NCBI GenBank assembly: GCA_008632985.1
Contig: QPGO01000271.1
Coordinates: 1-64,000, forward strand
From: Psammoneis japonica
Taxonomy: Eukaryota
DNA: 64,000 nucleotides
Reading direction: 5' to 3'
The translations under genes and the position numbers were made by a program. This document shows, one piece after another, positions 8,616 to 63,157 of the stretch. The notes beneath the pieces were generated by a model that was given only the letters and a program-made list of their open reading frames with translations, was not told the DNA's origin and made no database searches. Numbering within the stretch: the first letter of the stretch is position 1; each line of letters opens with the position of its first letter.

Positions 8616-8757
8616 ACACCCCGACTCGCCCGCACCCCGACTCGCCCGACTCGCCAACACCCCGACTCACCGACACCCCGACTCGCCGACACCCCGACTC
8701 GCCAACACCTCAGCTTGTCAACACCCCGACTTGCCAACACCCTGACACCCCAACTTG
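8616..8757. repeat. Degenerate minisatellite of ACACCCCGACTCGCC-like units
   Basis: Tandem alternating CACCCCGA / CTCGCCGA octamers. Confidence 0.85.
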
Positions 8758-9130
8758 TCAAATCTCATTGGGGGCATGTGCCACAGCTGCACTCATGATC
8801 ACGGGCCCAAACAGCTTCACTCAAAAAACCATCAGCAAAATCTTCCATGTTGTCAAATTTGACATCATCTCTTCCATGTTGGCAAAATTGATCAGACCAA
8901 GGTCAACCTTGCACGCAGGTGGAGCAAAGTCATTGGCTGTCATGAGCCCTGAAAACCCATGCGTGCGATTTCTTGCATGTGATGCATGAGCTGGTTTGGG
9001 TTCCACAAATCACACAAAATCACTCACTCCATGACACAGCAGCTGATGGAGAAACATTTGTCATTCTTCTGACTCCTCTCTTTTCTTTCTTGCAATTCAT
9101 CCTGTCAAAGATGTTGAAAGAACCTTCCAT

Positions 9131-13950: not shown

Positions 13951-14978
13951 TTCACAGGTTCTGACATCTTGAATGTTGGGCAGAGGAAATGGAGCACGCA
14001 CTGGCCTCTTGTTCAGTTCACAACAGCCTGACAGGAACCAAACTCGACCATTTTTCTTTGGTTGAACAAAGGTTGGAGCTGCTCATTTGGAGCAATCAAT
14101 CACTCTCAAGACCTTTGGCTCACACAGTCACTCAACTTCCTTTCAGCGAGTCATTCTTTAGAATTGCTGTGCATCAATTTTTTTTAAATTGACAGTTTTC
14201 CTCACTGAGAGTGTCTGAGACTTGGACATTTTCTGAGCTGCACATGCAGTTGCCATTCAAACTGAACAAATGCTGACATTCTGTCATGAACACAGGCAAT
14301 TTATGTGCCATTGGCCATTGGTCCACCATCGCTCATTTGGTGGCCCTGGCAGCGCAACATCTCACAATTCTAGAACCTGTTGATGCTGTTCAACACCCTG
14401 TCTTGTCTTTCACCCAATTCTCAGCCATCATGGCAGCATTTGCTCACTTTGTCAGTGCCAACATGCTGTGATGTTCATCGCCTGGAACGTGCACAGCAAA
14501 CGGCACGACGGCATTGTTGTGGTCGATCGATTTTTGCGGCAAGCGCCATGTTGGTCCCATGGTTGCTCACGTGTGTGTGTCGTTGTTCATGGATGTGAAC
14601 AATGTGCTCTTGGAGACCAGAGCCGTGATCTGTTGGACATGACGTCAGTGGACGGAATGTTTGATCACATGGATGGAATGTGTTGGCTGAGACACACAAA
14701 CGTCGTGATCAAGACAAGACAATGTTTCATGCATTGAGGTCTGTCATTTGATCACAAACATTTTTTGACAAATCAAGGTGCATTGTCAAATTGTTTGGAC
14801 ACTGCACATGTGGATGCATGTCTGTTGCTCATCATTGCTCAGGAGTGACACCGCCTGCTCGCGGGTTCACCAAGTGGGAACCACCAAATTGGCACGAGAA
14901 CCACACATTTTTCTCACTTTTCTCCACTCACACAAGTGGATGCTCACGCGTCGAAACGCAAACAACTGTTGACACACA

Positions 14979-16393
14979 ATGGCTGCTGCCGCAGCCTTTG
15001 CCGCTTGTCTTGCACGTTGTGGGCACAATGCGCAGACGCACACCTGCACAGCCGGTCAAGGCTTTGCTGCCATTGACGACCTGGAACAGGCCCCTTTGGC
15101 AGAAATTGCTGACATGACTGAGGGTGTTGTGAAAAGAGTGGATGCCGCCGCTGGCCCCAAGTCTGCTTCCCACACCTGGCGAATCGCAAGTTCAAGGCAC
15201 TGCGCACATGGATTGACTGCCGCAGAGCCCAAAGGCAACAGCCGACTGCTGCGCTCTTTGCTGGTGACGTCATTGGAACATGGACGGCATGTCTCATGGA
15301 ACTGAAACAATTCAAGTCAGCAGACTCAGATGACGAATCGGCTGCCAAGATGGCCGTGGAGCTCAGGAATCTGTGTGACTGGCCTGCCTTCCAAGAGTCA
15401 CTGGAGACCGAACTGCACCACCACCACAGTGCCGTCACCGGCATGCCCCTTGTCCACCTGATTGGGGAGCATGAAGACGTCGCCACTGAAATGTTGGCTG
15501 CCACCTGCACTGCCATTGACGAGGACCTCATTGCCACTGCTTGACTTGCAGGAGCTCAGCACACGCAGGGTGGGCAATGCCTGTGTGATCTCTTGAAGAA
15601 GTCAGTGACATGGGGGCCCGGATGGGCTTTTGTCAAACCCCGCAATCGCGATGGTCGCACTGCTTTCTTTGCACTCAAGAGGCAGGTGGAAGGATCGGCT
15701 GCCGCCACTGCCCAAAAGAACGATGCTCATGCACAGATTGCCACTGCGAAGTGCACCGGACGGGGTCGATTTACTTTCGACCAGTGCACTCAGCCCCATC
15801 AAAAGGCTCACAACAACTTGTCTGAGCTTGATGAGCCGGTGGCTGAGACCAAGAAGGTCTCTGACTTTCTAAAGGGCATCTCCAACCCTGGGTTGGAGAC
15901 TGGCAAGAGTGCAGTGGATGGAGACCTGATGAAGCTGGTGGATTTTGAAGCATGCCAGCAGCACATGAAGACTCTGAAAGAAAATGCAAAGAACTGCAAT
16001 GCTGACACTTGCAGAATCGCATCCATCCAACGCCGCAACAACCGGCATGGAAACCCTGGCGGAAAGCACCAACCTAAAAAGGACAAGCCCAGGATCCGGT
16101 CAGGCCATTGTCCCTTTGAAGAGTGGAGTGCTCTTGATGGTCCTGAACGAGAGCAAGTTCAAAAGCTCCGTGATGCCAAGAAAGCCAAAAAGAAATGCAA
16201 AGCTGCAGCTGCGTCCTCGGATGATGAGTCGGTTGATGCCAAAACTCGCGCTGTTAAGAAAGTGGCCATTGCCGAGCCCAGTCCTCAACCTGCTGATGAA
16301 CCAAAGGACTCCGAAGAGCCTGACAAACTTGCCGCCAATGCAGGCACCCAGTTCGGACGCAGTGCACATGAGAAACCTCAGAAGGAGGAATGA
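14979..16393 (+). pseudogene. Copia A gag (disrupted)
   Basis: WPAFQESLE..GMPLVHLI, DGRTAFFALKRQVEG, FTFDQC..HQKAHNNL, ETKKVSDFLKGI, typical of stramenopile Copia gag; split across ORFs. Confidence 0.75.
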
Positions 16394-16417
16394 ACAGTTG
16401 CGCCAGCACCAAAAGGC

Positions 16418-18057
16418 ATGGAACCGAATGTTGCTGAACCTGCTGGCACTGTTCATTTAACCAGGCGATTCTCAAAGGACACACGTGTCTCTTTGTCATC
16501 TGCTGGGAATTCAGATGATGAAGCCACCACTGATTTGGACTCGCACGCTGACACGTGTGCTGTTGGGTCCATTTTTGTGATGCACTCTGGCATCGACAGA
16601 ATTGTTGTGGTGCACCCTTGCTCCGAAGAGCATGCACCAATGGAAAACATTCCTGTTTGCACGGCTGCCACCGTGTGGGTTGATCCAACTGATGGACAAC
16701 CACATCTGCTGCCAGTCCACGAGGCCATGTTTTTCGGGGACAAGATGACTGACACCCTTCCATGCCCCAACCAACTGCGAGCGAACGGGCTGATTGTCCA
16801 TGACACCCCTTGCCAGTTTGATCCGACTGGCACACACTCCATTTCTTTTCCTGACTCGAAGATCAGGACACCATTGAGAATGCGAGGTGTTGCTTCAGTC
16901 TTTGATTCACACAAGCCGACAAAGGAGGATCTGGAGAACCTTCCCCAGCTGGAACTTGCATCACCCCTGAGATGGGAGCCTTCTGCTGATGCCCTGGTGC
17001 AAAAGGAGGAAGCGCGTGCGTGTGCCAGTGTGCGCCAAGGATCAGCAAAGTCGGACAGATGGTCGATGATGATGAATGCAACCAGGTGTGTTGCTTCCAT
17101 TCACTCATGCCAAACATCCCATCATGACGAGAATGTCATTGTGGATGCAAATGATGATGATTCTTTGCATCACCGCCTGGTTGCTCAGGTGAATGTCTCC
17201 CACAACGACACTGAGGGAGACGGGCTGCATGACCAGCATGACCCAGATGTCCACCCAGATTGTGCCGAGCGGAAACGGGTGCATGCACTGTCAACCTCGA
17301 GTCATGCATCGACCATCACGCCCGAGACACTCTCTAAAAGTTGGAACATTGGCCTGACGGCCGCTGAGAACACCCTTGGAGTGATGACCCAGGCAGGGGT
17401 CCGCAATGTCTGCACACCATCCGAACGGAAAGTCCGGAAGAAAGCCCCTTGGCTTAAGTTCACTGCTGTCAAGGGACACTTCTACTCCGACCAGATGTTT
17501 TCGAAGGTCAAATCGATGCTTGGCGAGACAGGAGGAAGTGCACTTGTCAACGGAAGAGGGTGTGACAGGTTCCATCCTTGGAAGAGGAAACAGGACCACC
17601 CGGACGCCGTCATGTCATTTGTGCATGATGTTGGCGTGCTGCAGGTCCTTGTGTTGGATGGCGTGCCGGCAATGGCGGAAGGCCACACCAAAGAGATCAG
17701 CAAGGAATGCAGGACACACCAGGAGGTGTCCACCCCGTGCAGCCCCTGGCAGAACCCAGCCGAGGCATCCATTCGTGAGTTGAAGAAAAGAGTCCGTGTG
17801 GCTCTACGCCGGACTGGCGCTCACAGGCGACTTTGGTCCCACAGCGCCAAATGGACATGTGACATCCGACGCATGATTGCACCTGGCATGTCGGACATGG
17901 GAGGACAAGTCCCAGAAGAGGAGGTGACAGGTTCGACACCCAACATCTCGTCCCTCTCTCTCTTTGATTGGTGTCAACCTGTTCATTGCTGCATGCCTGT
18001 GGCAGAGTTCCCACACGAAAAGCAGTGCATTGGCCGTTGGCTCGGAGTGGCTGACAA
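16418..18057 (+). pseudogene. Copia A pol: aspartic protease and integrase
   Basis: LDSHADTC protease motif; LSKSWNIGL; FVHDVGV..LVLDG..PCSPWQNPAEASIRELKK integrase core; one Tyr in the 560-aa ORF. Confidence 0.85.
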
Positions 18058-19066
18058 GCTAAACCTGCTGGCACTGCACATTTGTCTGAGTGATTCTTGA
18101 AGGACACACATGTCTCTTTGTCATCTTCTGGAAATTCTGATGACAAAGCAACCACTGATTTGGACTTGCACGCTGACACGTGTGCTGTTGGGTCCAATTT
18201 TACAATGTGCTCTGATGTCGACAGAACTGTCGTGGTGCACCCTTGCTCTGAAGAGCATGCACCAATGGAAAATGTTCCCATTTGCATGGCTGCTGCTGTG
18301 TGGGTTGATCCAACTGATGGACAACCATGGCTGCTGCTGGTCCATGAGGCCATGTTTTTTGGAGACAAGATGACTGACACTCTCCTGTGCCCCAGCCAAC
18401 TGCAAGCAAATGGACCAATTGTCCATGACACCCCTCGCCAGTTTGATCTGACTGGCACACACTCTGTTTCTTTCCCTGACTCAAAGATCAGGATGCCATT
18501 GCAAATGCGAGGTGTTGCTTCAGTCTTTGATTCACACAAGCCGACAAAGGAGGATCTGGAGAACCTCCCCCGGCTGGAACTCACATCACCCCTGAGATGG
18601 GAGCCTTCTGCTGATGCCCTGGCGCAAAAGGAGGAAGCACATGCATGTGCCAGTGTGCGCCAAGGATCAGTGAAGTCTGATGGACCGTCAACGATGATGA
18701 ATGTGACCAGGTGTGTCGCTTCCAATTGCTCACATCAAATGTCCCATTACAACGAGAATGTCATTGTGGGTGCCAATGATGATGATTCTTTGCATCACCG
18801 CCTGGTTGCTCAGGTGAACATCTCCCACAATGATGCTGAGGGAGACGGGCCACATGACCGGCATGACCTGGATGTCCACCCGGATTGTGCCGAGCAGAAA
18901 CGGGTGCATGCACTGTGTCGTGCATCGACCATCACACCTGAGATGCTTTCTAAAAGGTGGGACATTGGCCTGACGGCTGCCAAGAACACCCTCAGAGTGA
19001 CGACCCAGGCAGGGGTCTGCAATGTCCACACACCATCCGAGCGGAAAGTCTGGAAGAAAGCCCCTT

Positions 19067-19236
19067 TGTCTTGTGTGGATGTTGTGAGCTAAAGAGGCTT
19101 GCGACTGCTCAGTGGTCCATGAGCTAGCTGCGTCAGAGATTCTTCGACATCATCTCTCTGAGTCAGCACGAATGAGCTCCATCTGTCCATCCGTCCGTCT
19201 GTCCGTCTGTCCTGCGAGCTCTAGCTGACCGTGACA
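19067..19236 (-). repeat. 3' LTR of Copia B
   Basis: TGTCTTGTG...GACCGTGACA; aligns without gaps to 28569-28738. Confidence 0.95.
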
Positions 19237-19465
19237 CTCCCTCGTGTCGACGAGGGCTCTGACTGGTGCCAGCAATGGAGCCAAGCCGATGGAGCAACAT
19301 CTGTGCACAGCCTCCAGAGCATTCCTAGAAAATGTCTGGGGTGTGTCTAGGGTGTGTCTCTCCCTCGTGCTTCGAGGACAAGTGAAACGAAAAATGTGCT
19401 GTTTGCACATGTCCAAAAATGCTGTTTTTGAGTAAAGTGGCAGTCTGTTTGAACTGCTCAACACA

Positions 19466-20159
19466 TCACCAACCCATTGTCATGCACCGTAAGCCTTCAA
19501 ACTTGGTCCTGCCAAGAGGTTTGGTGAGCAGGTCTGCCCAGTCACAGTTTGTGTCAACTTTCACTGCCTTCACAGAACCACATTTTGTGTGGTCCCGAAA
19601 GTGCATCCATTTGATGCTTGTGTGCTCAGCTCTGGCTCTGCATTGCTCGTCAGAGGTGGCCATTGCAATGCATCCTGCATTGTCTTCATGCACTGTGGAC
19701 GGGGGAAGCTTGTGTGGAAGCACACGAGTTTCCAGAGAACCAGATTCAATGTGTGAATCTGCCAGTTCAAAATCCATGGTTTTGGACAGTTCTTCCAGCA
19801 CAGTTCTCATTGGAAGCAGCTCTCTCATGCACTGTGACAGTGCAACAAGTTTAGCCTTGGTTGAGGAGAGAGCTGTCTTGGTTTGTAATTTGCTCTTCCA
19901 ACAGATTGGACAGCCTGCGAATGTGACAATGTGTCCTGATCGTGACAGGTGCGATTTGTGGAGATGGGCAAAATTTCTGTGCCACATTCCCACGAAGTTG
20001 CTGTCAATTTGTGCACCCAGGGAGAATTTCCCTTTTGGCCCAAGCTTGACACCGTCTGTTGAAGTTGCCAACAGATGACATCCGATGCACTCAACTGCTT
20101 GTTCGTGCAATGCCTTTGGGCAATTAGAAAATCTAGTGCACACATGCACTGCCATTGCA
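19466..20159 (-). pseudogene. Copia B RT C-terminus and RNase H
   Basis: MAVH..RFS..PK..HEQAV; SRSGHIV..GCPICWKSKLQ..ALSSTKAKLVALS; VHEDNAGCI; ADLLTKPL. Confidence 0.9.
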
Positions 20160-22102
20160 CACAGCGGTTTCCATGCAAGAATGGCAAGCATGTTTGTCTG
20201 TGAAAAAAATGTTCGGGTGTGCCAAATCAAACTGGAATCAGGAACTTTTTAATCTTCAAAGTTTTGAAAAAAGCACACTGTCACCGCACAAAAAAAAATT
20301 GTTGCTCAGAGCCGCAGTCACCATGAATCGACAACAGCCGGTTCTGCTTCATGTGAACTGCCGACGCTGAGGAAAAAATGAGATGTGTTGTCGTTCATGG
20401 CATTGTTGAGGTCACATGTCGTTTTTTCCTCAGTGCAAGATGTTTTGATGTCGTCGTTGTCAACATGGTTGACAATGGCAGACGGAATCTCGGTTGCGCC
20501 TTTTTTCGTGGAAATCATCGTAGATTTCTGCGCGGGGTTTGTGCTGGATTGTCGGAACAAGTTTTCGTCGATTTGTTGTCATGGATCTGACGGTGGCCTT
20601 GTTGATGGCATTTTGACTTGCCTCTCCCAGTGTCTCCCATGTTTCAGCTCTCTGTCGCATCTTGCTGTCATGCTGTGCAAAATTGTTCCATCTGTAGAAG
20701 CCCAGAGAGAAAAACACACGATCATTCGTGCCACTCCTGACGACGAGATTCATGCCACGATGATGGGACGAATGAGCTTGACTGCAGGGGTGGATGAAAA
20801 GTCCAGCATGGACTCTGCAATGCAGTGCAGTCTTGGCACTCTTGTTGAGACTTGGTGTGGTGGCATTGGAAGCATTCTGTCGGGATCATCTGAGCTCAAA
20901 TCAGCTCAAGCCGCTGTTCTCTGTCAGTCGATGAGAAATGCACCGTCGGGCTGATGCAGTGCAGCAGGTCGATGATCCAGGTGAGTTCACTTGATTGGTC
21001 TTACAAATTTAAGATGTTGACAGTGTGGACGTTTCCAACAGGTTGATGCAATGGAAATTTCTTGCTGGAAAGGTCCATCATTTCCAAACTGGGTCAAATC
21101 CTGCCATTCGACGCAGGCCATGAACCAACCGACATGCAGCAGTGGGCAATCATCTCAAGTGCTGTGGCTGAATCTTGCGCAATGCCCAGAGCAACAAGTT
21201 GTGTGCCCAAAGCAGCCACGCAGTGCTCCCAAGCACATTTCCCAGAGCAAACAGTGGTCGCTGACAGCTGAGAGCAAGGGTCTCAGCCAAGCGTTGCTTT
21301 GCAAGCAGAGGGTCCACCAAAGCACAGCAGCATCTGCTGAAAGAGACACAATGCCATGTTTGCTTTTTATCGTGTGCAGTCCTGCCACGGATGCAAAAAC
21401 ACTCGCATGACTGTCAACATCAAATCGTCTTGAACGGGGCAACTTCCATGTCATTGTCGTGCAGCTCGGCTTCCAGCTCAGCCTGTTGAGAAACCAATCG
21501 TCATTCTTGCCACTCAAATGGTCTGCGTTGGCACCAAGTCCATCAATCTCAGTGTCAAACTTGGCTTGAAGATCGCGGTGCGATCGTTCCTGACAACAGG
21601 CCCAGCTGCTGATTTCCTGAGCCGACGCAATGTGGCAATCGTCTTGGAATTCTCCAATTCCTCCCCGAGCTCTTCCGGAATGTCGTGACAGAATCAGCTT
21701 CCGTTCGGGACAAGATGAAAGACAATCAACAGACGATTTTTTTCAGGCGAGACGATGGAGAGGAAGGAAGCCAAAAAGGTGGCAAAGGGCAAACCTCGCT
21801 GTCGAGACAGAGACTGCACTGCAGAACAATGTTGAGGAGCCGGGTGGGGATGTTGGCGGGGAAGAAGGAACTGCTGGCTGACACAGTTGGCAAATTTTGA
21901 CTCACCTGTCTTCTCCAAATGGTGTGTCACAAAGGGGCGTCAACAATGCTGCAGAGTTGCATCTTCAATTGACAAAGATTGCCATCGCAATGGACTTGAA
22001 GACGTGCGATGTGCAATGAAATGAATCATCGGCGAGGGAAGGAGAAATGGGCAATGAGCACATTTCACTGTTCGCCCTGAAATGCGCGTTGAAACCGCTG
22101 TG
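20160..22102. mobile_element. Non-autonomous DNA transposon with CAC..GTG ends and 4-bp TSD TGCA (Chapaev/CMC-like), inserted in Copia B RT
   Basis: CACAGCGGTTTC at 20160-20171 and GAAACCGCTGTG at 22091-22102; TGCA on both sides; removal restores PDVA-MAVH. Confidence 0.85.
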
Positions 22103-23200
22103 TGCAACATCTGGTTGAGTCATTTGTGCCAGAAAGCTCATCTTTCCGATGACAGACCGGCAGTTCCACGGTTCTTGACGCTCCTGACCGTTCGTGTCAG
22201 GATGCAGCATTTGTGCTGCTGGAGCAGCCTTTGTTTGTGGCCTGTTCTGTGATGGTTCATTGTTGTGGGACCTCAGACCGAGGTCTTTCAATGTAGAATC
22301 AACAAGACCTGTCTGGGTCATGTGAATCTCGCCATCGGCGGTGTTGGCAACATCTGCACCGAGGAAAGCAGATGCATCGCCTTCGTCGGTAAGTTGAAAC
22401 TCGTCTTGCTTGAGTTCTTGTGTGAGTGCAGTTACAACATCGTTCGTTGGAGTGAAAACCAAACAATCATCTGTGTGTGAGTAGATGACACAGTCATTTC
22501 TGATGAATGGACATGGGTCCATTTTTGATTTCTTGAAACCGCGTCGTTCCAATCCCTTTGACAGTTTCTGGAACCAGTTTCGTGCAGCAGTTTTCGTGCT
22601 GAGTGAGTTCTTTTTCAGTTTGCATGCCATGTCTGGTGTGATGTTTCCATTTTCGTCTTTCACTTCCCACCCTTCTGGGAGTCTCACATGCACTGGTTCT
22701 TCCAGCTCTGCTTGTGGAAATGCTTGCACACAATCCACTTGTCTGCTTTTCAGACCGGTGATTGCTGCCAGACACAATGTCAGTTGTGCCATGCTCCATG
22801 CGATGACTGGGGCGAATGTGTCCCAACAGTCCATTCCATGTTGTTGTTTGGAGCCGTCAACGCATGTTCTAGCTTTACATTTTGAAAGCTCACCACTTGG
22901 TTTCCTTTTTCTTTTGTGTGACCATGTTGCATTTAACAACCGGTGGTCTTTTGGTGCTTCAGAACATGGCATGTGTTCCCATGTGTCCACATCTGCTGGC
23001 CCTTGTGTTTCTGGAACTTGGGCTTTTTCAAATTCGGCATGGTCTGGCACTCTTTTCATCTGGCCCTGGGTCAGGGTGTTGACGTCACCCAGTGCCGCTG
23101 CTTCGAAAGTGAGTGGACTGGATTCGTTCCACACATCTTCGTCGAGAAGCATGTCATTGTCTGCTGAACCCACAAGTGCCATCAGATGTGCGAGCTCTTC
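22103..23200 (-). pseudogene. Copia B reverse transcriptase (Tyr->Cys/His converted)
   Basis: WSHKRKR, SKCKAR, QQHGMDCWDTFAPV, QVDCVQAFPQA, catalytic HTDD (YxDD expected), WNCRSVIGKM. Confidence 0.92.
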
Positions 23201-23487
23201 ACACAGTTCAGCTGCAACTTCTTCATGGTGTAGAGGCATTGTGGTGCACGCGTTCGCATCAGGTGAGTCACTGTTTTTCGCATTGTTCTGCACTGTTGTA
23301 CAAGTCGCGTCGTCATCCAAACCTTTTTGGCGTTTGTGTTCATGAAATTGATGACGAGCACAGTCTGCTTCATCGTTCAAATGTTGGAGGGCTTCTTTCA
23401 TTGGCAAAGAAGTTGCAGCATCCTCTGGAGTTGCCACAGTTTGGGCCCTGGGTGACTGCATTGTCCACAATCAACGGTGTCGCATTG

Positions 23488-24825
23488 TCAACTGACAGCC
23501 GCTGCAGGTGGCACAGCCTCGGAGGCTTCAGCATGTGCCGACTCTGCTGGCATTGTTGCATCTGCCAGTGCAGCTGCCGCATGTGTCGGTGTGTTGGCCG
23601 AGACATCAACAGCTGGCAGAATCTCAAATGGTGCATCGTCATCGTCTGGCTTTTCTTGTCCAGCACGGTCTCTTTTTCTCCCTCGTGATTTGTGATTGGT
23701 CTTTTGCACCTGTTTGTGCGCTTGAGGGTTGACACCGTGTTCTCGGAGCAAGTCGTCCTCACTCCAAACATTCTTTTCAAAATGATGTCGATTGTGATCG
23801 AAATGTTCATCATGGTGAGTCCAAGTGTTTGCATGGTCATCAAACAATTTTTCAAGAGCTGCCTCAAGATCATCGCTTGATGTCTTTCCAGGCGCTGCTG
23901 TTGCAAAGTTTTCGTCAAATGTGACATGAAATTGTGGCAAGACGTGTTTGGTTGTGGGGTCCCATGCCAAACAGACATTGCTGGCATGGTCCAGCAAATG
24001 TCCCACGTGCACTCCTTGGCATGACCGTTTGGCCCATCTTCCGATGTGAGTCCCGTCTTGGACACTTTTGTCCGCGATGTAAACAGGACACCCCCACACG
24101 CGAAAATCGTCCATTTGAAAAGGCGGTTTCTCGTCGGTGAGTGGCTCCCAGGGGTTTTTCTCTTTTCCTTTTTTGGTGCACACATTGTGGAAATTGACAG
24201 CTTGTCTGATGGCAAATGGCCACAATTCCGTGGTTGCCACATCAGACCAGAGGGGCTGAGCGTGCAACAGGCATGTTCGCGCCATTGAGGTGATGACGCC
24301 CATGCAGCGTTCCAAGATGCCGTTTTGCCAGTGTGCTCCTGCTCCACAAAAAAAGTTTTGTTGTTTGTTTTCAACGCAGTGTTGTGTGAACTCTGCGGCG
24401 GCGAACATGCCGTTGTTGGCATGAATGTGCTCGATTTTTATGTTGTGTTTTGCCGTGAATCTCTCGAGCTTGGTTTCACCAGTCAAGGTCTCTTTTCCTC
24501 CAGCAGACTCTTGCATGCAAGGACATAAATTTGGAGAAGTGATCAATCCACAGAGCACAATGTTTGCACCTCCAAGTGGTTGGTTTGCCATGAGAAGTGG
24601 GAAGCAGGCCTGGATGACTCGCATCGAGTTGATCCGCGGATGCTCCTCGACCTGGAGCGTCGTCGTGGCATTCATCAATGCGGTGACCATGTTGAGCTGC
24701 CTTGCGCTTGGCTTTTGCACAAGCACGTGCTTTGCAGACTGGAGCTTTGCACTTTGCAAAGCGTTTTGGCACGGCGCTGATCTTGGCCCATTCTTTGATT
24801 TGTTCAAAACCAACGTGTCCCGCAC
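23488..24825 (-). pseudogene. Copia B integrase
   Basis: HVGFEQIKEWAK..CKAR (GAG-pre-integrase), IDHFS, HIHANNG, GAHWQNGILER, LWPFAIRQAV, FRVWGCPVY, QFHVTFDENF. Confidence 0.88.
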
Positions 24826-26125
24826 AATGGTGTGATTTCAACACATCGCATTGGATGGGAAGTGGGTTGTCTTCTGCACCTCCCTCGTGGACTGGCAAGT
24901 CCTGTTGAGGCTGAGCAGGCCTTGGTTTCTTTTTGTTCTCGTTTGACTTTTTGTTCTGCTGATTGTCAGAAGTCTGTTGTTTGTTTGTGTTGGCCGCCGC
25001 CTTTTGCTTTCTTGTTGTGACAGCAAAAGCCGGACACGAAGCCGAGCATGCCTTCATGTTGGTGCGAGGTGGCAGTTTGCCATTTGCATCAATGTCAGAG
25101 CAGAAAGCCAAAGCCTGGAGCCGCAGCAAGAATCGGCAGATTCGACTCGTGATGGTGTCGCACGGTTTTGCGATGTTGTCCACAGATCATTGTCATGGAC
25201 TTGCCCCTTGCAAAGAACCCATCTGTGTCCTCATTGGGGCTAGTGGCTGCCACTTGTTGAGGGCACAGCAGACGAACCGGGCAGGTGGGCACGCGCAGTG
25301 CATTGTTGACATCAACAGCAAAATTGTTGCCGTTGTCATCCACAAAGCCGTGTCTCACCATGCCAATGCCCTCAATGGCCAGGCCAGATGCAACACCCTT
25401 TAAGTCCAAGTTTTGGATGGGTCGCATGCAACCAACAAAGTCATTTTCATTGTTTGAAATTGTGGCAGAAGCACCCGAGTCGATGATGAGATGCATCTCG
25501 TCAGATGTGAGGGTCAGCATCTCATCTGCCAAATGTGCAGCATGTTCTGCCAGAGCATTTGACAACTCCTTGTTCTCCTCAGGAGCTCTGGCAGCAGCAG
25601 TCTCATGTGCTTTGACTGGTTGTGGTGCATCGCGTTTGTCAATGAATGCAGATGTCGAGCGAGGTCTCGCTTGCACGTGGCTGCCACAGATGAAGTGTCC
25701 ACGGTTTTCAAGAGCCATTTCAAATGCGCGGGCATCATCAACAATTTCACTCACAAGACCATGTCTCTGTTGGTGCAATTTTAAAACTTGTGGTGAAAGT
25801 TTCACACTTTTGCTTTGATTTTGACCGATCCAGGCAAAGTGTTTGAACAAAACTGGATCCCAAGCAGTGTGGCACATCAGTTGTTTTCTAGTTGCCTTCT
25901 CCCCTCTTCTGTTCAAGAGAGGCAACAGATTGAGAGAGGGATGAGTTTGCAGCAAATTTCTGCAGCTTGTTGACATCCGACTGAATCTTGGAACCAGCCT
26001 TCTGGCGCTTGTTGTCATGTCCAGACTTGGATTGCGTGTTTCCAGGATGCTTGCTGCTCTTGTTGTCATTGGAGGCAATGCATTTGTCGTGGGTGCCGGT
26101 GCTGTGGCGAGTGGAGTGCATCTTG

Positions 26126-26572
26126 TGCAGCATGCATGCAGACAAAAGGTCATTTTTGTCATGCCCTTTGTGACATTTAAAGGCTGCAACACGTCGCCGT
26201 GATGCATTGGCTCTTGTCAGTGGCTGTGTGTTGCACTCCTCCCCATGTGTCACGCGTCCATGCGGCTCTTTGCTAACGTGTGCTGACACTGCACGGTTTT
26301 GGCGGAACAGTGTGGGTGCGCATGAAGGAACACACAGAACTGCACAGAGTTTTGCACGTTCGACAGTGATCAACGTTGCTGCAGACAACTCCCACTCAGG
26401 GTTTCGAACCCCTGGCCTCCTGCCTGATGGTTGTGATGAACCACTCCGCTGTGAATTCACAATGCAGCATGCATGCAGACAAAAGGTCATTTTTGTCATG
26501 CCCTTTGTGACATTTAAAGGCTGCAACACATCGCCGTGACACACCAACTCTTGTCAGCAGCTGAGTGTTGCA
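26126..26572 (-). mobile_element. TRIM, 110-bp LTRs, TSD CTTG
   Basis: LTRs 26126-26235 and 26463-26572 (TGCA..TGCA); CTTG on both sides; PPT GGGGAGGAG on the minus strand; non-coding interior. Confidence 0.9.
26390..26458 (-). promoter_or_regulatory. tRNA-derived Pol III promoter-like segment (A and B boxes) inside the TRIM
   Basis: Minus strand CAGCGGAGTGGTT...GGTTCGAAACCCTGAGTGGGA; the second copy reads TGGCGGAGTGG (A-box consensus TRGCNNAGYGG). Confidence 0.6.
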
Positions 26573-28132
26573 CTTGCATGTGTCACACCAATGCCACTTC
26601 TTGTTGCCCCACTCCTTTTCCGCTTCTTTGTTCTCGGGTTCAATGTGCAAGAACGGAGGGGAACCACGGCGAGGCACGCGGCCACGACCGTTTCCGCGAC
26701 CACCATGACCCTGATGTCCCCGGCGGTTGTCGCGGCAGTTGCAACGGTTGTTGCGACGCTCGCACCGCGCGAACTCTGCTGCAGGGACGACTGGAAAGCA
26801 GAGGCGACCTTCGTCATCTGCTGCGCGAAGTTGACGAGCTGTTCGTTCTGAGCCAGCATGGCCATGAACTGGGTTTCTTCCGTGGAAGGTTTGTCCCAAA
26901 GATCCTGTGCCTCAAGTGCCATCTGGAGGCTGTTGGCTTCCTCAAATGGGGTCTTGACGGTCCATTTGACGTGTTTCTTTCGCATCCAATCGGTCTTGTG
27001 CTCAGCCATCTTGGCTGCGAATGGCTTGCATGCGCCGGTTTGGAGTTGGTTGAAGGCTTTCTCAACGAGAGTGCACTCGAGCGTGTCGTCACGCTTGTGA
27101 ACCAGGCAGAGGCACTGCCTGAACTTGTGCATGTGCGCGTTGACATTGCCGTTGCAATCGTCAATGAGAGAAACCTCGGACAATTTTGTCTGGATGCCGT
27201 CAATGTGCATCTCGGGCAATGGGGGTGGCTGCTTGAATCTGTGGCAGAAGTGCATTGTGCCGTCCTTGTGGAGATGATCCATGACATTTTCGTCGGACGC
27301 AATTGCCTGATGCAGCTCTTTGTCATGTGAGGCAACAAGCAGGGCCTTGAGCGCACGTTGCGCGAAATGCATGGATGTCTGGTCATCGGATTTCCTGGTG
27401 ATGACCTCGTCAGTTTCAACACCCCACAGCACATCGGCTGGGAATTCGAAAATGTGCGCTTCTGCTTTGGTGAAGTCTTTTGTCAAAGACGTGCCGTTGT
27501 CAAACTTCATGACTTTCGCCCACACAGGGGAGCTCTGAAGACGTTCCTCAAGACAAAAGAGGAAGTCAAAGAATGACTCAGGGGACACAGTCAATTTGTC
27601 TTCCAGCAGTTTGGCCAGTTGTGCAATGCGCTCATCAGCACATGCAGCCGCAGCAACTTTGTCAATGTGGGCAGCAAGCCTCTCGCGCTTGTGCTCAGAT
27701 GAGTGCTTTTTGGTGTGCTTGCGGGGGGCTTCTGCATTGGACTTGTTGGACTCATTGGACGAGACACTGCGTCATCGTCAGAAACATCCACATCGTCCGA
27801 GTTCGTCACTGACGTGAGTTTTGCGATGCCGTCATTGTCACGCACATCATCGTCCTCAAGTGCATTGCCGTCAGGGTTCTGATGGTCGACATCGTCATCA
27901 CGTGGCACCTTTTTGGGCGCATGTTCGATGAGTTCATCGAGAGCCATGTCGACTTTCCCGCCCTTCTTTCGAGGGACGCGCTCCATGCCGGCCAACCCTG
28001 CATTGCGAGATGGCGAGGGCGTCGCGGTGGCGCTGGGCTTCTGCGATTCAGAAAACCCCTTGCCTGATTTGGACTTGCCAGTGTGTTTGGTGCTGGAGGA
28101 TGGTGCCATGGTGGTGGGTGTTGCTGGTGTTT

Positions 28133-28523
28133 GACGGGTTCCAGTCCCAGGCGGGACTTTTTGTGACATTTGCCCCGCAGAATTCTGCGTGTGAGCTCTG
28201 CAGTTCGCACTCTGGTCAATGGATGCACTCATCTTTGACACAAAATAAATGGCCAAGTTTGCAGCACACACATCTCTGTTCGCACTTGAAGTTTTGGACA
28301 ACACGCCTGCCCTGCGCCATTCTTGAGACACTCGAGAATGGCGCGCAGAAGAAAAAAATGTTGAAAGTTGCTGAATGGATCGCCTGACATTTGCACTGTG
28401 AAATGATGCAAAATTTTGCCAAAATCACGTAGAAATCTGCGTGCGCGACATGCGACGCGATTCAAAAAACTGTCGATGTCACAGCTCAGCAGTGCGAGGT
28501 CCCACCTGGACCTGGAACGCGTC
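28133..28523. mobile_element. MITE (GACGCGTTCCAG family), TSD GTTT, in Copia B 5' region
   Basis: GACGGGTTCCAGTCCCAGGCGGGA...TCCCACCTGGACCTGGAACGCGTC; GTTT on both sides. Confidence 0.9.
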
Positions 28524-28568
28524 GTTTGTTGTCAAAAAGGTTGCAGAGGCAACGAAGGCTGCACAACC

Positions 28569-28738
28569 TGTCTTGTGCAGATGTTGTGAGCTAAAGAGGC
28601 TTGCGACTGCTCTGTGGTCTATGAGCCAGCTGCGTCAGAGAATCTTCGACATCATCTCTCTGAGTCAGTGCGAATGAGCTCAGTCTGTCCATCCGTCCGT
28701 CTGTCCGTCTGTCCTACGAGCTCTGGTTGACCGTGACA
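28569..28738 (-). repeat. 5' LTR of Copia B
   Basis: Pairs with 19067-19236. Confidence 0.95.
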
Positions 28739-31700
28739 CCCTTGGCTTAAGTTCCCTGCTGCAAAGGGATGCTTCTACTCTGACCAGATGTTTTCGAAGG
28801 TCAAATTGACACATGGCAAGATGGGAGGAAGCGCACTTGCCAACGGAAGAGGGTGTGACAGGTTCCATCCTTGGAAGAGGAAACAGGACCACCCAAACGG
28901 CGTCATGTCATTCACACATGACGTTGGTGCACCACAAGTCCTTGTGTTGGTTGGCATGCCAGAAATGGCAGAAGGCCAGACCAAAGAGATTTGCAAGGAA
29001 TGCAGGATGCACCAGGAGGTGTCCACCCCGTGCAGCCCCTGGCAGAACCTGGCCAAGGCATCCATTCATGAGTTGAAGAAGAGAGTCCGTGTGACTCTAC
29101 GCTGGACTGGCGCTCACAGGTGACTTTGGTCCTGTGGCGCCAAATGGACATGTGACATCCGACGCATGATTGCAACCAGCATGTCGGGTGTGGGAGGGCA
29201 AGTCCCAGAAGAGGAGGTGACAGGTTCAACACCTGACATCTTGTCCCTCTCCCTCTTTGACTGGCATCAACCTGTCTGTTGCTGCACGCCTGTGGCGGAG
29301 TTCCCACATGAGAAGAAATGCATTGGCCATTGGCTCGGAGCAGCTGACAATTGCACTGACGACATGGCATTTGTCATTTTGACCGAATCAGGCAAGCCCA
29401 TCATTTGGAAGGATGCATGGGCCGTGCCGGAGGATGACCTTAAAACTCCGGTGATCCAGACGGATCTTGCATCGGTCGATCAAACGGCTTAGCATCCTGG
29501 AACAGGGTGCCAGTGCTGACTTCCCTGAACTCCCTGATGACTTCATGGACGAATGGGATGATGCCGTTGAACCCGTGGAACCCGACAACTCCAAACCGGA
29601 AGCTGATGAGCATGCCCCGGAAGGGCCAGATGAGCATCTCACAGCTCAAGTCATGTTGCCACGCGGAGGCGAGCTGACTCATGACAGGGTCATTGCATGC
29701 AAACAAGACAGCGATGGGGTTCCCATTGGTGCTGGGAACAACAACCCTGTCCTGGACTCGAGGACATGTGACATGGAATTTCCTGACGGATCCACTGATT
29801 CCCATGCTGCCAATGCAATTGCAGAGAACCCATTCACTCAGATCAACTCTGAAGGGAATGCCTGCCAGATCATGAAGGAGACAGTCGATCACCGACGTGA
29901 TGCCCGTGCCACGACGGCTGATGACGGGCACACAACGGCGTTTGGGTGGTCCTGTTTCCTCTTCCAAGGATGGAACCTGTCACAACCTCTTCCGTTTGTA
30001 AGTGCATTTCCTCCTGTCTTGCCATGTGTCGATTTGACCTTTGAAAACATCTGGTCAGAGCAGAGGCGTCCCTTGACAGCAGGGAACTTAAGCCAAGGGG
30101 CTTTCTTCCAGACTTTCCATTTGGTGGTGCACAGACATTGCGGACCCCTGCCTGGGTCGTCACTCCAAGGGTGTTCTCAGCGGCCATCAGGCCAATGTCC
30201 CACCTTTTAGAAAGTGTCTTGGGTGTGATGGTCAATGCACGACTCGAGGTCGACAGTGCATGCACCCGTTTCCACTTGGCACAATCCGGGTGGACATCTG
30301 GGTCATGCCGGTTGTGTGGCCCGTCTCCCTCAATGTCATTGTGGGAGACATTCACCTGAGCAACCAGGCGGTGACACAAAGAATCGTCATCATTGGCGTC
30401 CACAATGACGCTCTCATTGTGATGGGATGTTTGATGTGAATGAATGGAGGCGACACACCTGGTCGCATTCATCATCGTCAACTGTTTGTCAGACTTTGCT
30501 GATCCTTGGCGCACACTCGCACATGTGCGTGCTTCCTCCTTTTGCTCCAGGGCATCAGCAGAAGGCTCCCATCTCAGGGGTGATGTGAGTTCCAGCCGGG
30601 GGAGGTTCTCCAGATCCTCCTTTGTCGGCTTGTGTGAATCAAAGACTGAAGCAACACCTCGCATTCGCAATGGCACCCTGATCTTCGTGTCAGGGAAAGA
30701 AATGCAGTGTTTGTCAGTTGGGTCAAACTGGCAAGGGGCATTGTGGACAGTCAGTCCATTCTCTCGCAGTTGGTTGGGGCACAGGAGAGTGTCAGTCATC
30801 TTGTCCCCAAAAAACACAGCCTCATGGACTGGCAGTGGGTGTGGTTGTCCATCAGTTGGATCAACCCACACGGCAGCAGCCGCGCAAATGGGAACATTTT
30901 TCATTGGCGCATGCTCTTCGGAGTGAGGGTGCACCACGACAGATCTGTCGACATCAGAGTGCATCATAAAATTGGACCCAACAGCACACGTGTCAGCGTG
31001 CGAGTCCAAATCAGTGGTTGCTTCATCATCTGGATTTCCAGCAGATGACAAAGAAGTGTGTGTGTCCTTTGAGAATCGCTTGGACAAATGTGCAGTGCCA
31101 GCAGGTGCAGCGACATTCAGTTCTGTGCCTTTTGGTGCTGGCGCAACTGTTCATTCCTCCTTCTGCGGTTTCTCATGTGCACTGCGTCCGAACTGTGTGC
31201 CTGCATTGGTGGCAGGTTTGTCGAACTCTTCGGAGTCCTTTTGTTCATCAGCAGGTTGAGGATCAAGCTCGGCAATGGCCACTTTCTTAACAGCGCACGT
31301 GTTGGCATCAACCGATTCAGCCTCTGAGGATGCAGCTGCAGCTTTGCATTTCTTTTTGGCTTTCTTGGCATCGTGGAGCTTCTTGACTTGCTCTTGCTCA
31401 GGGCCATCAAGAGCACTCCACTCTTCAATGGGACAATGGCCTGCCCGGATCCTGGGCTTGTCCTTTTTAGGTTGGTGCTTTCCGCCAGGGTTTCCATGCC
31501 GGTTGTTGCGGCGTTGGATGGACGCGATCCCACGAGTGTCAGTGTTGTGGTTCTTGGCATTTTCTGCCAGGGTCTTCATGTGCTGCTGGCATGCTTCGAA
31601 ATCGCCAGCTTCGTTGGGTCTCCATCTACCACACTCTTGCCAGTTTCCAACCTGGGGTCGGAGACACCCTTTGGAAAGTCAGAGACCTTCTTGGTCTCGG

Positions 31701-34700
31701 CCACCGGTTCATCAAGCTCGGACAAGTCGTTGTGAACTTTTTGATGACGCTGAACGCACAGTTCTTTGCATTTTCTTTCAGAGTCTTCATGTGCTGCTGG
31801 CATGCTTCAAAATCCACCAGCTTCATCAGGTCTCCATCCACTGCACTCTTGCCAGTCTCCAACCCAGGGTTGGAGATGCCCTTTAGAAAGTCAGAGACCT
31901 TCTTGGTCTCAGCCACCGGCTCATCAAGCTCAGACAAGTTGTTGTGAGCCTTTTGATGGGGCTGAGTGCACTGGTCGAAAGTAAATCGACCCCGTCCGGT
32001 GCACTTCGCAGCAGCGATCTGTGCATGAGCACGGTTCTTTTGGGTGGTGGCAGCAGCCAATCCTTCCGCCTGCCTCTTGAGTGCAAAGAAAGCAGTGCGA
32101 CCATCGCGGCTGCAATTGGAAGGTTGGACAAAAGCCCATCTGGGCCCCCCATCACCAACTTCTTCAAGAGATCATGAAGGCATTGCCTGTCCTGCGTGCA
32201 CTGAGCTCCTGCAAGTCAAGCAGCAGCAATGATGTCCTCGTCAATGGCAGTGTGGGTGGCAGCCAACATTTCGCCGGTGACGTCTTCATGCTCCCCAACC
32301 AGGTAGATGAGGGGCACACTGGTGACAGCACTGTGGTGGTGACGCAGTTCGGTCTCCAGCAACTCTTGGAAGGCAGGCCAGTCACACAGATTCTTGAGCT
32401 CCATGGCCGTTTTGGTGGCCGATTCGTCATCCGAGTCTGCTGACTTGAATTGCTCCAGTTCCGTGAGACGTGCCGTCCATGTTCCAACAATGTCGCCAGC
32501 AAAGAGAGCAGCGGACGGCTCTTGGTTTTGGGCTCTGCGTCAGTCAATCCATGTGCGCAGTGCCTTGAGCTTGTGATTCGCCAGGCATGGGAAGCGGACT
32601 TGGGGGTTGGCGGCGGCATCCACGATGCCCTCAGTCATGTCAGTGATCTCTGTCAAAGGGAGCTGTGTGGGTGCATGTCTGTGCATTGCATCCACAATGT
32701 GCAAGGCAAATGGCAAAGGCTGCGGCAGCGGCCATGGTGCACCAGCAGTTGTTTGCGTTTTGATGCGTGAGCATCCACTTGTGTGAGTGGAGGAAAGTGA
32801 GAAAAATGTGTGGTTCTCATGCCGATTTGGTGGTTTCTACTTGGCGAACCCGCGAGCGGGCGGCGTCACTCCCAAGTGACAATTGGCAACAGACATGTGT
32901 CCACATGTGCAGTGTTGTGTGTGATCAAATGACAGATCTCAACACATGAATTGCCATGTCATCTAAATCACGAATGTTCACATGCCTTGCCCAACATGTT
33001 CCATCCATGTGATCAAACATTCCGCACACCAACGTCATGTCTGACGGATCTGCAGTGTGCGACTGTCACACACATGTTTGTGATCATGTGTCATTTGCAC
33101 GTCAATCGCACCACAGTCGTGGATGCGCACAAAGGACAGAACGATCACACAGAGTTGATCGGATGTCGAGAATTGCAAATACGATCGATTGACGATGTTG
33201 ACATCTTGCGTGTCAACAGCAATCGCATCCGGACAATCTGTTGTCACGAATGTGTTCTCCGAAAGGCCTTTTGTCTGTAGAAGCAGTGCAGAAGCTTTAG
33301 GCCATTGAGAACTCGTTTGGAGAAACCAAAAATCACAGAGCAAAATTTGACCTTATAATTTCCACTTTTCGCACACTATTCTACTTTCGTTTACACTCGT
33401 TCTTCGAGCATAGTGCATTGTGTATAATGCAGCATGCGACTGTTACATGCATGTTTATGATCATATGTTATTCACATGTCAATCGCACCACAGTCGTGGA
33501 TGCGTACAAAGGACAGAACGATCACACAGAGTTGATCGGATGTCGAGAATTGCAAATACGATCGATTGACGATGTTGACATCTTACGTGTCAACAGCAAT
33601 CGTATCCGGACAATCTGTTGTCACGAATATATTCTCCGAAAGGCCTTTTGTCTGTAGAAGCAGTGCAGAAGCTTTAGGCCATTGAGAACTCGTTCGGAGA
33701 AACCAAAAATCACAGAGCAAAATTTGACCTTATAATTTCCACTTTTCGTACACTATTCTACTTTCGTTTGCACTCGTTCTTCGAGCACAGTGCATTGTGT
33801 CTGTGGTAAAAAGCACGAAAAATGAAAATTTTAACTAATGTGCCTTTGCAAATTCTTCTATGAACAGGAACGAATCGCATCAGTTCTGCTGGAATCGATT
33901 TCCGAGCGGAAGAAGCTCAAGCCGAGCAGTGCCTCAAGATGGAACGCTGTTTTTCGTCTACCAGACAAGAGGATTCGCTCCAGTGCAGTCTGTTCCAAGT
34001 GTCTCAGGACCAAGGACTCTACAAGAACACAGCATTGTCGAAACATCCACACCAAGTCATGGTTGGGTAGAATTTCAAGTCTTGAGTCGATCAGATCCGA
34101 GAAATACGTCTACCATGCAAGGAGAGACTATTGGAGAGTTTTTTGAGACCGAATCGATGATCCTCGAGTCCAAGGAGCAAGAGGGAATCGTTGGAAAGTA
34201 CCTCAAGCGTCTCATAACTCATGTCCTCCAAGAACTGCACTTCAGAATCAGAGTTGTTATTTTCGAGATGATCTGAAGAAACCCAAGGCTCTCAGCAGCA
34301 AGAGAGTGCCTGTTCGACCCAAGAGGTCAATGATGAGAGTCTGTGCGACCCTCAGATCGATTCTAAGTCGAATCTAGCGGGAAACCGAGCGCTGATTTAT
34401 CAGCCATCACTCGCACCGCAAGGATGGCAGCATCAGCCTGCTGTCCAAAACATTGGGTTGTTGGATCATGCCCTTGACGAGCTGATTGAGGTTTGAGTCG
34501 TCTAGAGGTCGGCGAGGACGTCTGTGACAAAAAAAACATGTCAATTCAGGCTCTGATAGCGCAGTTGATTCCACAATCAAAAAGGTTCCAATTTTGGTTC
34601 CAAAAATGGTCTCCCACATGGTGCCACCACAATCCAAAGTGAATGCAAGGTCTCATCTTTGAAAAAAGAACACCTGCATCACGGATTGAAGCTGTTCTAA

Positions 34701-37589: not shown

Positions 37590-38020
37590 AATCTGTCGAG
37601 TGTTCTGGTGGTGTTTGTTTTTTGGCATCATCTAAAATTCTTGTTGCAACACTCTGTTTAGATGGACAGCATGTTTGTGGTTTCTCTGCGACTCGGCTAC
37701 ATTCATGAATCGACCCTCACTGGAACAATGTCACATGATGCAGAGCATGGACATGACTCAATGTGAATGTGACGAGTGTGATGGTTGTGTTTGTTTTTTG
37801 ATGTCGTCTAAAATTCTTGTTGCTGCACTCTGTTTGGATGATTTTGTGTGGTTTCTACGCAACTCGGCCATGCTCCGTATTGATGAAGCGACCATCACTG
37901 GGTCAATGTCACATGATTAACATCATGGATGTGAGGTAACATGAATGCATCGAGTGTGATGGTTGTGTTTCTTTTTGGTGTCATCTAAAATTTTTGTTGT
38001 CACACACTCTGTTCAGATGG
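37590..38020 (+). repeat. Three ~177-bp subterminal tandem repeats in the Sola-like element
   Basis: GAGTGT..TGGT.GTGTTT..TCTAAAATT.TTGTTG..CACTCTGTT at ~37598, ~37773, ~37952. Confidence 0.8.
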
Positions 38021-38051
38021 ACAGCGCCGCCGACGTGATCGCTCCAACCAA

Positions 38052-45552: not shown

Positions 45553-46100
45553 TTAATGCAACTTTCTTCTGTGTGAGCAATGCATTGTCAATTGGCCCTT
45601 TGCACAAACCTGCTTTTTACCTCTGCTGACTTGCTGCTTGGCCAGTTTTGCATTCCAACAACTGCTTGTTCGCACTCTTGCCATGTCGAAATTGTGGACT
45701 GGACATGCCATGTTCCTTCGACCCGAATTCGTTTTGTTGGGCAAAGCTCGGTGCAACGTTCTTGCATCAAAAACAAATGCAGTGCCTGCTTCTCCAACCA
45801 GCAATTGTTTTTCCAAACCCAACCTGACCAAGTGTCTTTCACGTTCCTTCTCATTCAATGTTGCCTCACAACCAACTGGCCATGTCTCAACTGCACCATT
45901 GTGCTCCATTGTGTCATTGAGGAACAGAAACATGGTGAAAATTTTGTTGCCAGGTGACAACTTTGTTTCCACGTAATTGCGATGAATTTCCCCCTTTGAC
46001 CAGAAGTTTGATCTTGAACTTGAAGCAGGAGCGTTTGCCAGTGTGTGCCGGGATGTCATTCTGCATGAATCACCTGCCAGGAGAAAGCCAGGAATTAACT
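45553..46100 (-). pseudogene. PhyH-like 2-oxoglutarate/Fe(II) dioxygenase domain
   Basis: IHRNY (HxD; CGC-AAT derivable from CGC-GAT by CpG decay), TMFLFLND..NGAVETWP, GEAGTAFVFDARTLHRALPN..R. Confidence 0.7.
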
Positions 46101-63140: not shown

Positions 63141-63157
63141 ACAGCAAAGATTTTGGT

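Follow-up and report, generated by a model that had tools for sequence, protein, structure and literature searches.

TA dinucleotides have been erased from transposable elements of a diatom, Psammoneis japonica, after these elements had inserted. In the 64,000-nucleotide stretch of DNA analyzed here (contig QPGO01000271.1; hereafter the window), TA is the ancestral state, and its loss shows a near-absolute TpA specificity, affects both strands and takes place at the DNA stage. The distance between the two long terminal repeats (LTRs) of an element therefore reflects its exposure to this TA-erasing process rather than its age, and cannot rise beyond what the TA content allows.

The window contains a decayed Ty1/copia LTR retrotransposon of the diatom genome, lying on the minus strand. 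Both LTRs are 170 bp long with TG...CA termini: the 3' LTR occupies 19067-19236 (TA retained at 19090, 19125 and 19222) and the 5' LTR 28569-28738 (TA retained at 28592, 28620 and 28715). CCCTT is present at each outer side (19062-19066 and 28739-28743), and we consider this target duplication to be real because a second copy of the host repeat, also in the window, joins the element flanks with a 5-base overlap. A minus-strand purine tract adjoining the 3' LTR (19237-19243), found at the same place in sibling copies, is by its position a putative polypurine tract, and a sibling-conserved minus-strand stretch behind the 5' LTR (28549-28568) is a putative primer-binding site. A stop-free frame at 21965-23470 (minus strand) encodes the Copia reverse transcriptase (RVT_2 at 22262-22960, E 2.7e-30). 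Upstream of it, a minus-strand frame at 23488-24837 carries the SH3_retrovirus domain of the integrase end; the same order is seen in sibling L021. Paired TG...CA LTRs, the 5-bp target duplication and RVT_2 downstream of the integrase region are the features of a Ty1/copia element. Its pol is spread over several frames, and the reverse transcriptase frame is interrupted by a nested 1.94-kb element (20160-22102) with 12-bp terminal inverted repeats (TIRs) and a 4-bp target duplication, TGCA, which siblings lack. Two high-copy repeats with approximate limits are nested further upstream, one of ~450 bp at 26125-26573 and one of ~400 bp behind the 5' LTR at 28122-28523. The whole lies in a TA-erased repeat domain (1-33000, TA observed/expected ratio (O/E) 0.00-0.15 per kb), and the same state is found again from 42 kb to the end. 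The reverse transcriptase frame retains a single Tyr in 501 residues; at the nine columns where Tyr is the majority among 120 homologues, the window residue is His or Cys in six. That the host is a diatom is shown by 24 silicon-transporter matches.

A sequence-only reading of the window had counted 10 variable sites between the LTRs and placed most of the divergence at TA, and both statements hold: 13 mismatched bases fall into 10 sites, six of which (8 bases) are TA-derived. Four show TA against CA or TG, and each LTR retains TA lost by the other (the right LTR at 19118 and 19214, the left LTR at 19125 and 19223), again as claimed. Two TG/CA doubles (19076-7 and 19167-8), for which a TA or CG ancestor had been allowed, resolve to TA, since a TA-rich sibling LTR (L010/L011) reads TA at both; CG ancestry is thereby ruled out. 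The remaining sites comprise one that is CG in siblings (19180-1), two transversions (19111 and 19140) and one ordinary transition (19225). Across 11 LTR sequences of the family, 11 sites have TA in at least one sequence, and each window LTR retains three. Once TA-derived sites are masked, the window LTR distance drops from 0.081 to 0.033, a 2.5-fold inflation.

Direction and specificity are best seen inside the element, where 3,473 aligned bases could be compared with a TA-rich sibling. There, 147 of the 166 sibling TA sites became TG (84) or CA (63), and TA was gained only four times; both strands are affected, with no significant difference between the two outcomes (p=0.10). A>G changes occurred at 84/166 positions after T vs 14/936 after A, C or G (4/332 after A), and transversions were almost nil. 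Over the 64-kb window, TA O/E is 0.11 and TG/CA O/E is 1.64. Every repeat class in the window is TA-depleted, at 0.00-0.15 per kb, and host gene loci far less so, with a TA O/E of ~0.45-0.6 in most of the single-copy loci sampled.

The changes had been proposed to arise after insertion, in chromosomal DNA, and three observations support this. Both strands are hit. The nested TIR element has a TA O/E of 0.05: of 78 TA, 40 became CA, 31 TG and six were retained. Since an element without an RNA stage lost 71/78 TA, the loss occurs in chromosomal DNA (no long frame was seen in this TIR element, even in its best TA-rich copy). Finally, two assembled copies of one insertion (L077/L078) show 167 vs 6 TA losses; similarly, the shared-flank copies L075/L084 show 90 vs 1.

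We then classified substitutions in 41 Copia LTR pairs, as the sequence-only reading had suggested: the window pair and 40 loci, the best-scoring of 150 reverse transcriptase matches, a sample that leans young. A script found target duplications in 20/41 pairs. The pooled count leaves out L050 (no pair), L023 (the same insertion as L019) and L033 (a 1.2-kb repeat reaching the locus edge) and retains L041, whose flanks were later found to be mismatched. TA-type mismatches make up 363 of 460. Loss usually falls on one LTR of a pair: it was lopsided in 20 of the 21 testable pairs (those with at least six one-sided sites; p<0.05 each). TA-type mismatches are unrelated to background divergence (rho 0.012, 41 pairs), and 21/41 pairs have no background difference at all, yet 0-17 TA events each. 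Pooled mismatches fall from 460 to 97 without TA-type sites and to 45 without TA- and CG-type sites; CpG decay adds to the dating bias. LTR distance is thus inflated 2.5-fold in the window pair, whereas the pooled pairs, most of which are younger, give some 5- to 10-fold, with denominators not adjusted. Because TA loss is patchy, saturating and unlinked to background, no single factor can correct the error, and the rank order of element ages is scrambled as well. Masking of TA-, TG/CA- and CG-type sites is needed in this genome if LTR ages, the timing of bursts and repeat landscapes are not to be wrong, and it leaves half of the sampled pairs without any difference. Loss of TAA and TAG may furthermore create long stop-free frames that could mislead gene finders.

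TA loss comes in multi-kilobase patches, often with one LTR spared beside its identical twin. Thirteen copies of one family, all with exact target duplications, have a similar background (7-22 private changes) and yet lost between 8 and 205 TA. Their profiles are nested, the fraction lost peaking at 0.66 at 1-1.5 kb inside and dropping to 0.09 close to the 3' end, and loss is higher in the 5' part in 11/13 copies (p=0.003); flanks are mismatched in 3/17 copies of this family. In a second family, the first 500 bp are spared. A profile common to all families was dropped, as 4/6 families lack a shared one and have copy-specific patches. In two families, a low internal TA count is common to the copies, and part of the loss was therefore inherited from the parent element. 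In the element flanks, where spread was looked for, TA O/E is 0.28-0.45 on either side, without a clear trend. Private CG losses are ~3.8-fold more frequent in hot zones (78/2,116) than in cold zones (20/2,058), and other private A>G/T>C changes number 63 vs 24; transversions are alike (13 in 34.7 kb and 19 in 37.7 kb). On the strand whose A changes, 3' context follows the order TAC > TAT > TAG > TAA. The TAC strand wins at 76/97 sites; in two families TACG ranks first, alone or tied, and TAAA is lowest. The outcome at a given site agrees in only 64% of copy pairs, and in one family the sense strand is slightly over-represented (384/636 vs 350 expected, p=0.007). Strand runs (731 vs 712 expected, of 1,393) show no strand coordination, and processive single-strand bursts were rejected on this ground.

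We find it somewhat probable that a host process converts TpA to TpG or CpA after insertion by way of silenced, CG-methylated domains and a TadA/ADAT-type deaminase. The patches would correspond to silenced, CG-methylated chromatin domains, to which CpG decay provides an indirect link; they would begin inside the element and spread from there, farther in some cases than in others. In such domains, a TadA/ADAT-type adenine deaminase may turn A into hypoxanthine, to be read as G at replication, in many independent events. Diatom transposons are CG-methylated (PMC9998398), and native TadA depends on UACG (PMC12296453), according to the available text of both papers. Nine PF00383 matches in the genome resemble housekeeping deaminases and A_deamin loci number two, none of these searches yielding a dedicated enzyme. 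An ADAT2-like gene (L094), expected in any eukaryote, is present. A stronger version is a tentative possibility: the lineage would possess a dedicated defence whose TadA/ADAT-type deaminase, drawn to CG-methylated chromatin, starts from a fixed part of the transposon, spreads along it in the manner of heterochromatin and rewrites TpA with a TAC(G) preference. If true, it would imply, together with Bigelowiella natans, mutagenic silencing across the SAR group as a chemical mirror of fungal RIP. It would also mean that A is naturally edited to G in double-stranded genomic DNA.

The same targeting might instead operate through another chemistry, such as a T of TpA that is modified (for example, oxidised) and then mispairs with G, or an error-prone polymerase that arrives with the repair of methyl-CpG mismatches and miscopies TA. 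TA being its own reverse complement, the scar does not reveal whether A or T was damaged, and the joint rise of CpG decay and of further A>G/T>C changes in hot zones would fit. However, polymerase eta also targets AA and yields transversions, and here A>G is rare after A and transversions are nearly nil; a long repair patch should also leave the strand-coordinated runs that are missing. We regard this alternative as rather unlikely.

Quite improbable, in our view, is a RIP-like homology sensing in which repeats are recognized by pairing and mutated wherever repeated. It would account for the depletion of all repeat classes in the window and the much milder state of host gene loci, and diatom DNMT4 is moderately supported as a relative of fungal RID in the available text of PMC9998398. 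Yet the two LTRs of an element, though identical, are usually affected unequally, and in one family the 5' probe has 25 close matches and the 3' probe 27 despite strongly unequal loss, so that copy number is unsupported as the source of the 5'-3' gradient. Moreover, a duplicated silicon-transporter locus, maybe very recent or an assembly copy, retains 98 TA with 0 mismatches in 2.5 kb, and RIP chemistry (C to T) runs in the opposite direction.

An artefact appears very improbable, whether through long reads that miscall a modified base or through repeat collapse or polishing that creates the spared halves. The three copies with mismatched flanks could be read this way. One run makes up 60% of sampled words and may be the source sample. 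However, a contig of run X1 (depth 37.6) is identical over 23162-23436, where 18/20 sibling TA read TG or CA, and duplicates of one insertion (L005/L006) agree at all 11 sites. Homogenization of spared zones by polishing was dropped, as private variants persist there at the same transversion rate. Scarcely credible is an origin prior to integration, through RNA editing, errors of reverse transcriptase or cDNA editing, the first two of which the sequence-only reading had rightly doubted as the main source: APOBEC is known to bias element ages by editing retroelement cDNA and copies in two families share low internal TA, but cDNA editing is defined as strand-biased (PMC4866542, available text) and here both strands are affected within one LTR, the TIR element is affected equally, copies of one insertion differ 167 to 6, and per-site outcomes often disagree.

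How widespread the process is can be gauged only against searches that favor intact copies: 0/80 metagenome Copia loci have a TA O/E <0.3 (minimum 0.40, median 0.73), and 0/120 homologues are Tyr-poor, which is not evidence of absence. No account of TpA hypermutation in a diatom turned up in the literature searched, which lacked most subscription papers. LTR pairs and same-age copies provide a free internal assay of the mutator's site of action, making its targeting and chemistry testable.

Several known systems bear comparison, each described here from the available parts of its source. The dating caveat itself is already known: RIP in ascomycetes makes LTR ages overestimates, the remedy being to omit affected sites or all transitions (PMC4981457). 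RIP and the diatom process both produce repeat-directed, post-insertion transitions that bias LTR ages. RIP, however, turns C into T at the expense of CpA and TpG, whereas in the diatom TpA is destroyed and CpA and TpG are enriched; the unequal fate of identical LTRs further speaks against homology sensing. APOBEC hypermutation of vertebrate LTR retroelements shares the age bias and the deaminase logic, but acts G to A, with strand bias, during reverse transcription (PMC4866542), whereas the diatom changes are A to G, on both strands, after integration and include a DNA transposon. CoDi elements, the Copia-like elements of diatoms subject to DNMT5 CG methylation (PMC9998398), resemble ours in their reverse transcriptase and SH3 domains, LTRs, 5-bp target duplication and CpG decay; the accessible text makes no reference to TpA loss, and the word 'deamination' occurs 0 times in the paper.

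The closest published case, from one preprint, is B. natans, whose integrated NCLDV and virophage DNA undergoes TpA hypermutation (Mettrop et al., bioRxiv 10.64898/2026.01.13.699255). There, transposon domains are enriched among TpA-poor genes, an ADAT2-type enzyme is proposed, a single-copy viral insert loses TA, and the measured rate is ~1000-fold over background, in only some lines. Both systems turn TpA into TpG and CpA on both strands of chromosomal DNA, regionally and inconstantly; in the diatom, too, A:T to G:C changes fall almost only at TpA and are confined to mobile DNA, judging from window repeats against sampled host gene loci. B. natans is a rhizarian with two viral inserts and a TA O/E of 0.45 in the large one, and the measured rate is on its side only; the diatom targets are LTR and TIR transposons, and the ratio over the 64-kb window is 0.11. 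The accessible B. natans account shows no domains inside elements, no preference in 3' context and no CpG decay coupled to TA loss. Our results thus extend a process published for two viral inserts in one rhizarian alga to diatom transposons, where it runs far deeper.

The Copia element, on the minus strand, is bounded by two LTRs of 170 bp each (19067-19236 and 28569-28738), with CCCTT at both outer sides; in another window copy of the repeat that hosts it, the two flanks meet and overlap by 5 bases. The element belongs with Ty1/copia by its RVT_2 and SH3_retrovirus domains, and three other repeats are nested inside it. The 24 silicon-transporter matches in the genome identify the host as a diatom. 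The hosting repeat (14627-19066 and 28739-33050) has three window copies, one inverted, and its frames, of up to 568 residues, have no Pfam match; arrays of 8-bp units occupy 8604-8772 and 62509-63906.

Between the two LTRs, 13 bases at 10 sites are mismatched. The sequence-only reading had counted four of the ten as TA against CA or TG, which we confirm, each LTR retaining TA at two; as it also claimed, two further sites are doubles, with TG in one LTR and CA in the other. Whether these descended from TA or CG had been left open: a sibling LTR, from another copy of the family, shows TA at both, so that six of ten sites and eight of 13 bases are TA-derived. The LTR, used as a search query, gave 18 matches. 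Two additional sites have TG in both window LTRs and TA in three siblings, and represent either changes invisible to LTR comparison or inherited ones.

Across the whole window, the observed/expected ratio (O/E) is 0.11 for TA, 0.54 for CG and 1.64 for TG/CA. In 3,473 bases aligned with L021, a TA-rich sibling, the 166 TA of L021 correspond in the window copy to TG (84), CA (63), TA (17) or other dinucleotides (2); TA is present in the window but absent from L021 in four cases. A>G changes occurred at 84 of 166 positions after T vs 14 of 936 after other bases, and CG was also lost (52 of 168). The reverse transcriptase (RT) frame holds one tyrosine in 501 residues vs 2.3-4.8% among 120 homologues; in nine mostly-tyrosine columns, the window residue is His or Cys three times each, Phe twice and Leu once. 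Stop-free frames of at least 150 residues number 99 in the 64-kb window, likely through loss of TAA and TAG, and such frames could mislead gene callers. A PhyH-like 2OG-Fe dioxygenase match (E 9e-5) lies in TA-erased DNA at 45553-46431, minus strand. An island of higher TA (33049-41470; O/E 0.19-0.75), edged by direct repeats of about 369 bp (33049, 33426, 41102), contains a 781-residue DUF7869 frame (38052-40397); its right repeat retains 9-15 TA lost from the left copies, again one-sidedly.

The proposal that these changes arose in chromosomal DNA after insertion is supported by three observations. Both strands are affected about equally in the window copy vs L021 (p=0.10). A nested 1.94-kb element with terminal inverted repeats and a 4-bp target duplication, missing from siblings, has lost 71 of 78 TA relative to its best copy (40 CA, 31 TG). 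Finally, between L077 and L078, which are assembled copies of a single insertion, TA losses number 167 in one direction against 6 in the opposite one. Positions 23162-23436, where 18 of 20 sibling TA sites are TG or CA, are matched exactly by a contig of sequencing run X1 (depth 37.6), which is one check rather than independent replication, as X1 is perhaps the source sample.

The base following TA, on the strand whose A changes, influences loss: C 0.28, T 0.21, G 0.16 and A 0.08 in one family, and C 0.31, T 0.23, G 0.15 and A 0.14 in another. TACG is the top or joint top context and TAAA the lowest; counted per site, the TAC strand is favored at 76 of 97 sites and disfavored at 11. The TA that remains in the window's erased part, with TTAA at 63 of 193 and ATAT, ATAC and GTAT absent, is consistent with this preference. 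No strand runs were found among neighboring changes (731 vs 712 expected, of 1,393). Native TadA is reported to depend on UACG, and engineered TadA-8e to prefer UA (PMC12296453); the TA-loss context resembles this TadA preference, which is no proof.

Loss is patchy. The window pair is balanced, but of the 21 pairs with at least six one-sided sites, 20 are lopsided, with splits such as 13:0 or 0:17. The 17 copies of the L039 family show nested profiles, reaching further in some copies, with loss at its maximum (0.66) 1-1.5 kb from the 5' end and down to 0.09 near the 3' end. Target duplications are exact in 13 copies, carry a single mismatch in one, and flanks are mismatched in three (L041, L073, L075), which are recombinants or assembly joins; L040, L041 and L075 share an identical five bases behind the 3' LTR. 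The 13 exact copies carry 8-205 TA losses but 7-22 private background changes; in 11 of them, erosion is heavier in the 5' part (p=0.003). In a census independent of RT score, with probes paired by coordinates and measuring overall rather than TA-specific identity, the 5' probe was the less identical of the two in 21 of 25 elements, and both were equally identical in four. Private transversions are alike in TA-eroded and TA-spared zones (13 in 34,732 vs 19 in 37,650 bases); private CG losses are 78 of 2,116 vs 20 of 2,058. In a second family the first 500 bp are spared, and in four other families the patches vary from copy to copy, with no positional profile in common. All copies of the L065 family are low in internal TA (3-11 per 500 bp), and so an already depleted parent seems to have kept spreading. 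In a 25.5-kb tandem duplication (L024/L025 and L031/L027; G000 C6), the silicon-transporter part has no mismatch in 2.5 kb and the TA-erased part 22 in 10 kb, 16 of CG type.

The claim that TA loss inflates LTR ages is supported: masking TA-type sites lowers the Kimura distance of the window pair from 0.081 to 0.033. We examined 44 loci, 40 of them further Copia loci that lean young because they were picked from 150 scored RT matches among 804 candidates, and classified substitutions in 41 pooled pairs, with target duplications located by script in 20. The 460 mismatches in 10,709 sites comprise 285 TA singles, 78 bases in TG/CA doubles, 52 CG-type changes, 28 other transitions and 17 transversions. 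In 21 pairs there is no background difference, yet 0-17 TA events; over all 41, TA events and background do not correlate (rho 0.012, p=0.94). With TA and CG sites masked, the window pair has the largest distance of all, and its TA sites are nearly exhausted. The bias is therefore large for young elements and smaller for old ones, and no single factor corrects it. Most differences between L019 and L023, which are assembled copies of a single sibling insertion, lie at CG sites: after TA exhaustion, CpG decay dominates divergence.

We are nearly certain that this process exists, and of its stage, specificity and patchiness. Most likely, a host mutator would target silenced, CG-methylated transposon chromatin, which diatoms are reported to possess (PMC9998398), beginning inside the element and then spreading, with adenine deamination as its chemistry; chromatin link and enzyme class, both of which we infer, have jointly somewhat better than even chances. 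Besides one ADAT2-like and one TadA-like gene, the genome has two separate A_deamin loci of the ADAT1/ADAR type (L196 and L197/L198; G000 C40, C79); none of these is assignable to the mutator role. At L093:313-1785 (minus strand), a DIOX_N/2OG-Fe(II) dioxygenase is fused with a zinc deaminase domain, an unusual combination in view of the two candidate chemistries, although probably with a role in nucleobase metabolism. C5 DNA methyltransferase copies (L103, L104, L105; G000 C301, C297), which lie in TA-erased DNA (TA O/E 0.07-0.10) and have stops in two cases, are possibly borne by a mobile element.

The initial observation thus stands, and its interpretation is supported and sharpened. The same dating caveat has been published for APOBEC editing (PMC4866542) and, with a remedy, for fungal RIP (PMC4981457); the diatom process is RIP-like in effect, but its chemistry does not fit that of RIP. 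None of 80 metagenome loci was TA-erased in a search that favors intact copies, and the literature searched yielded no diatom report of TpA hypermutation. The closest case is Bigelowiella natans, where TpA hypermutation of viral inserts is described (bioRxiv 10.64898/2026.01.13.699255); such a process has been reported once before, and a variant of it is found here in diatom transposons.
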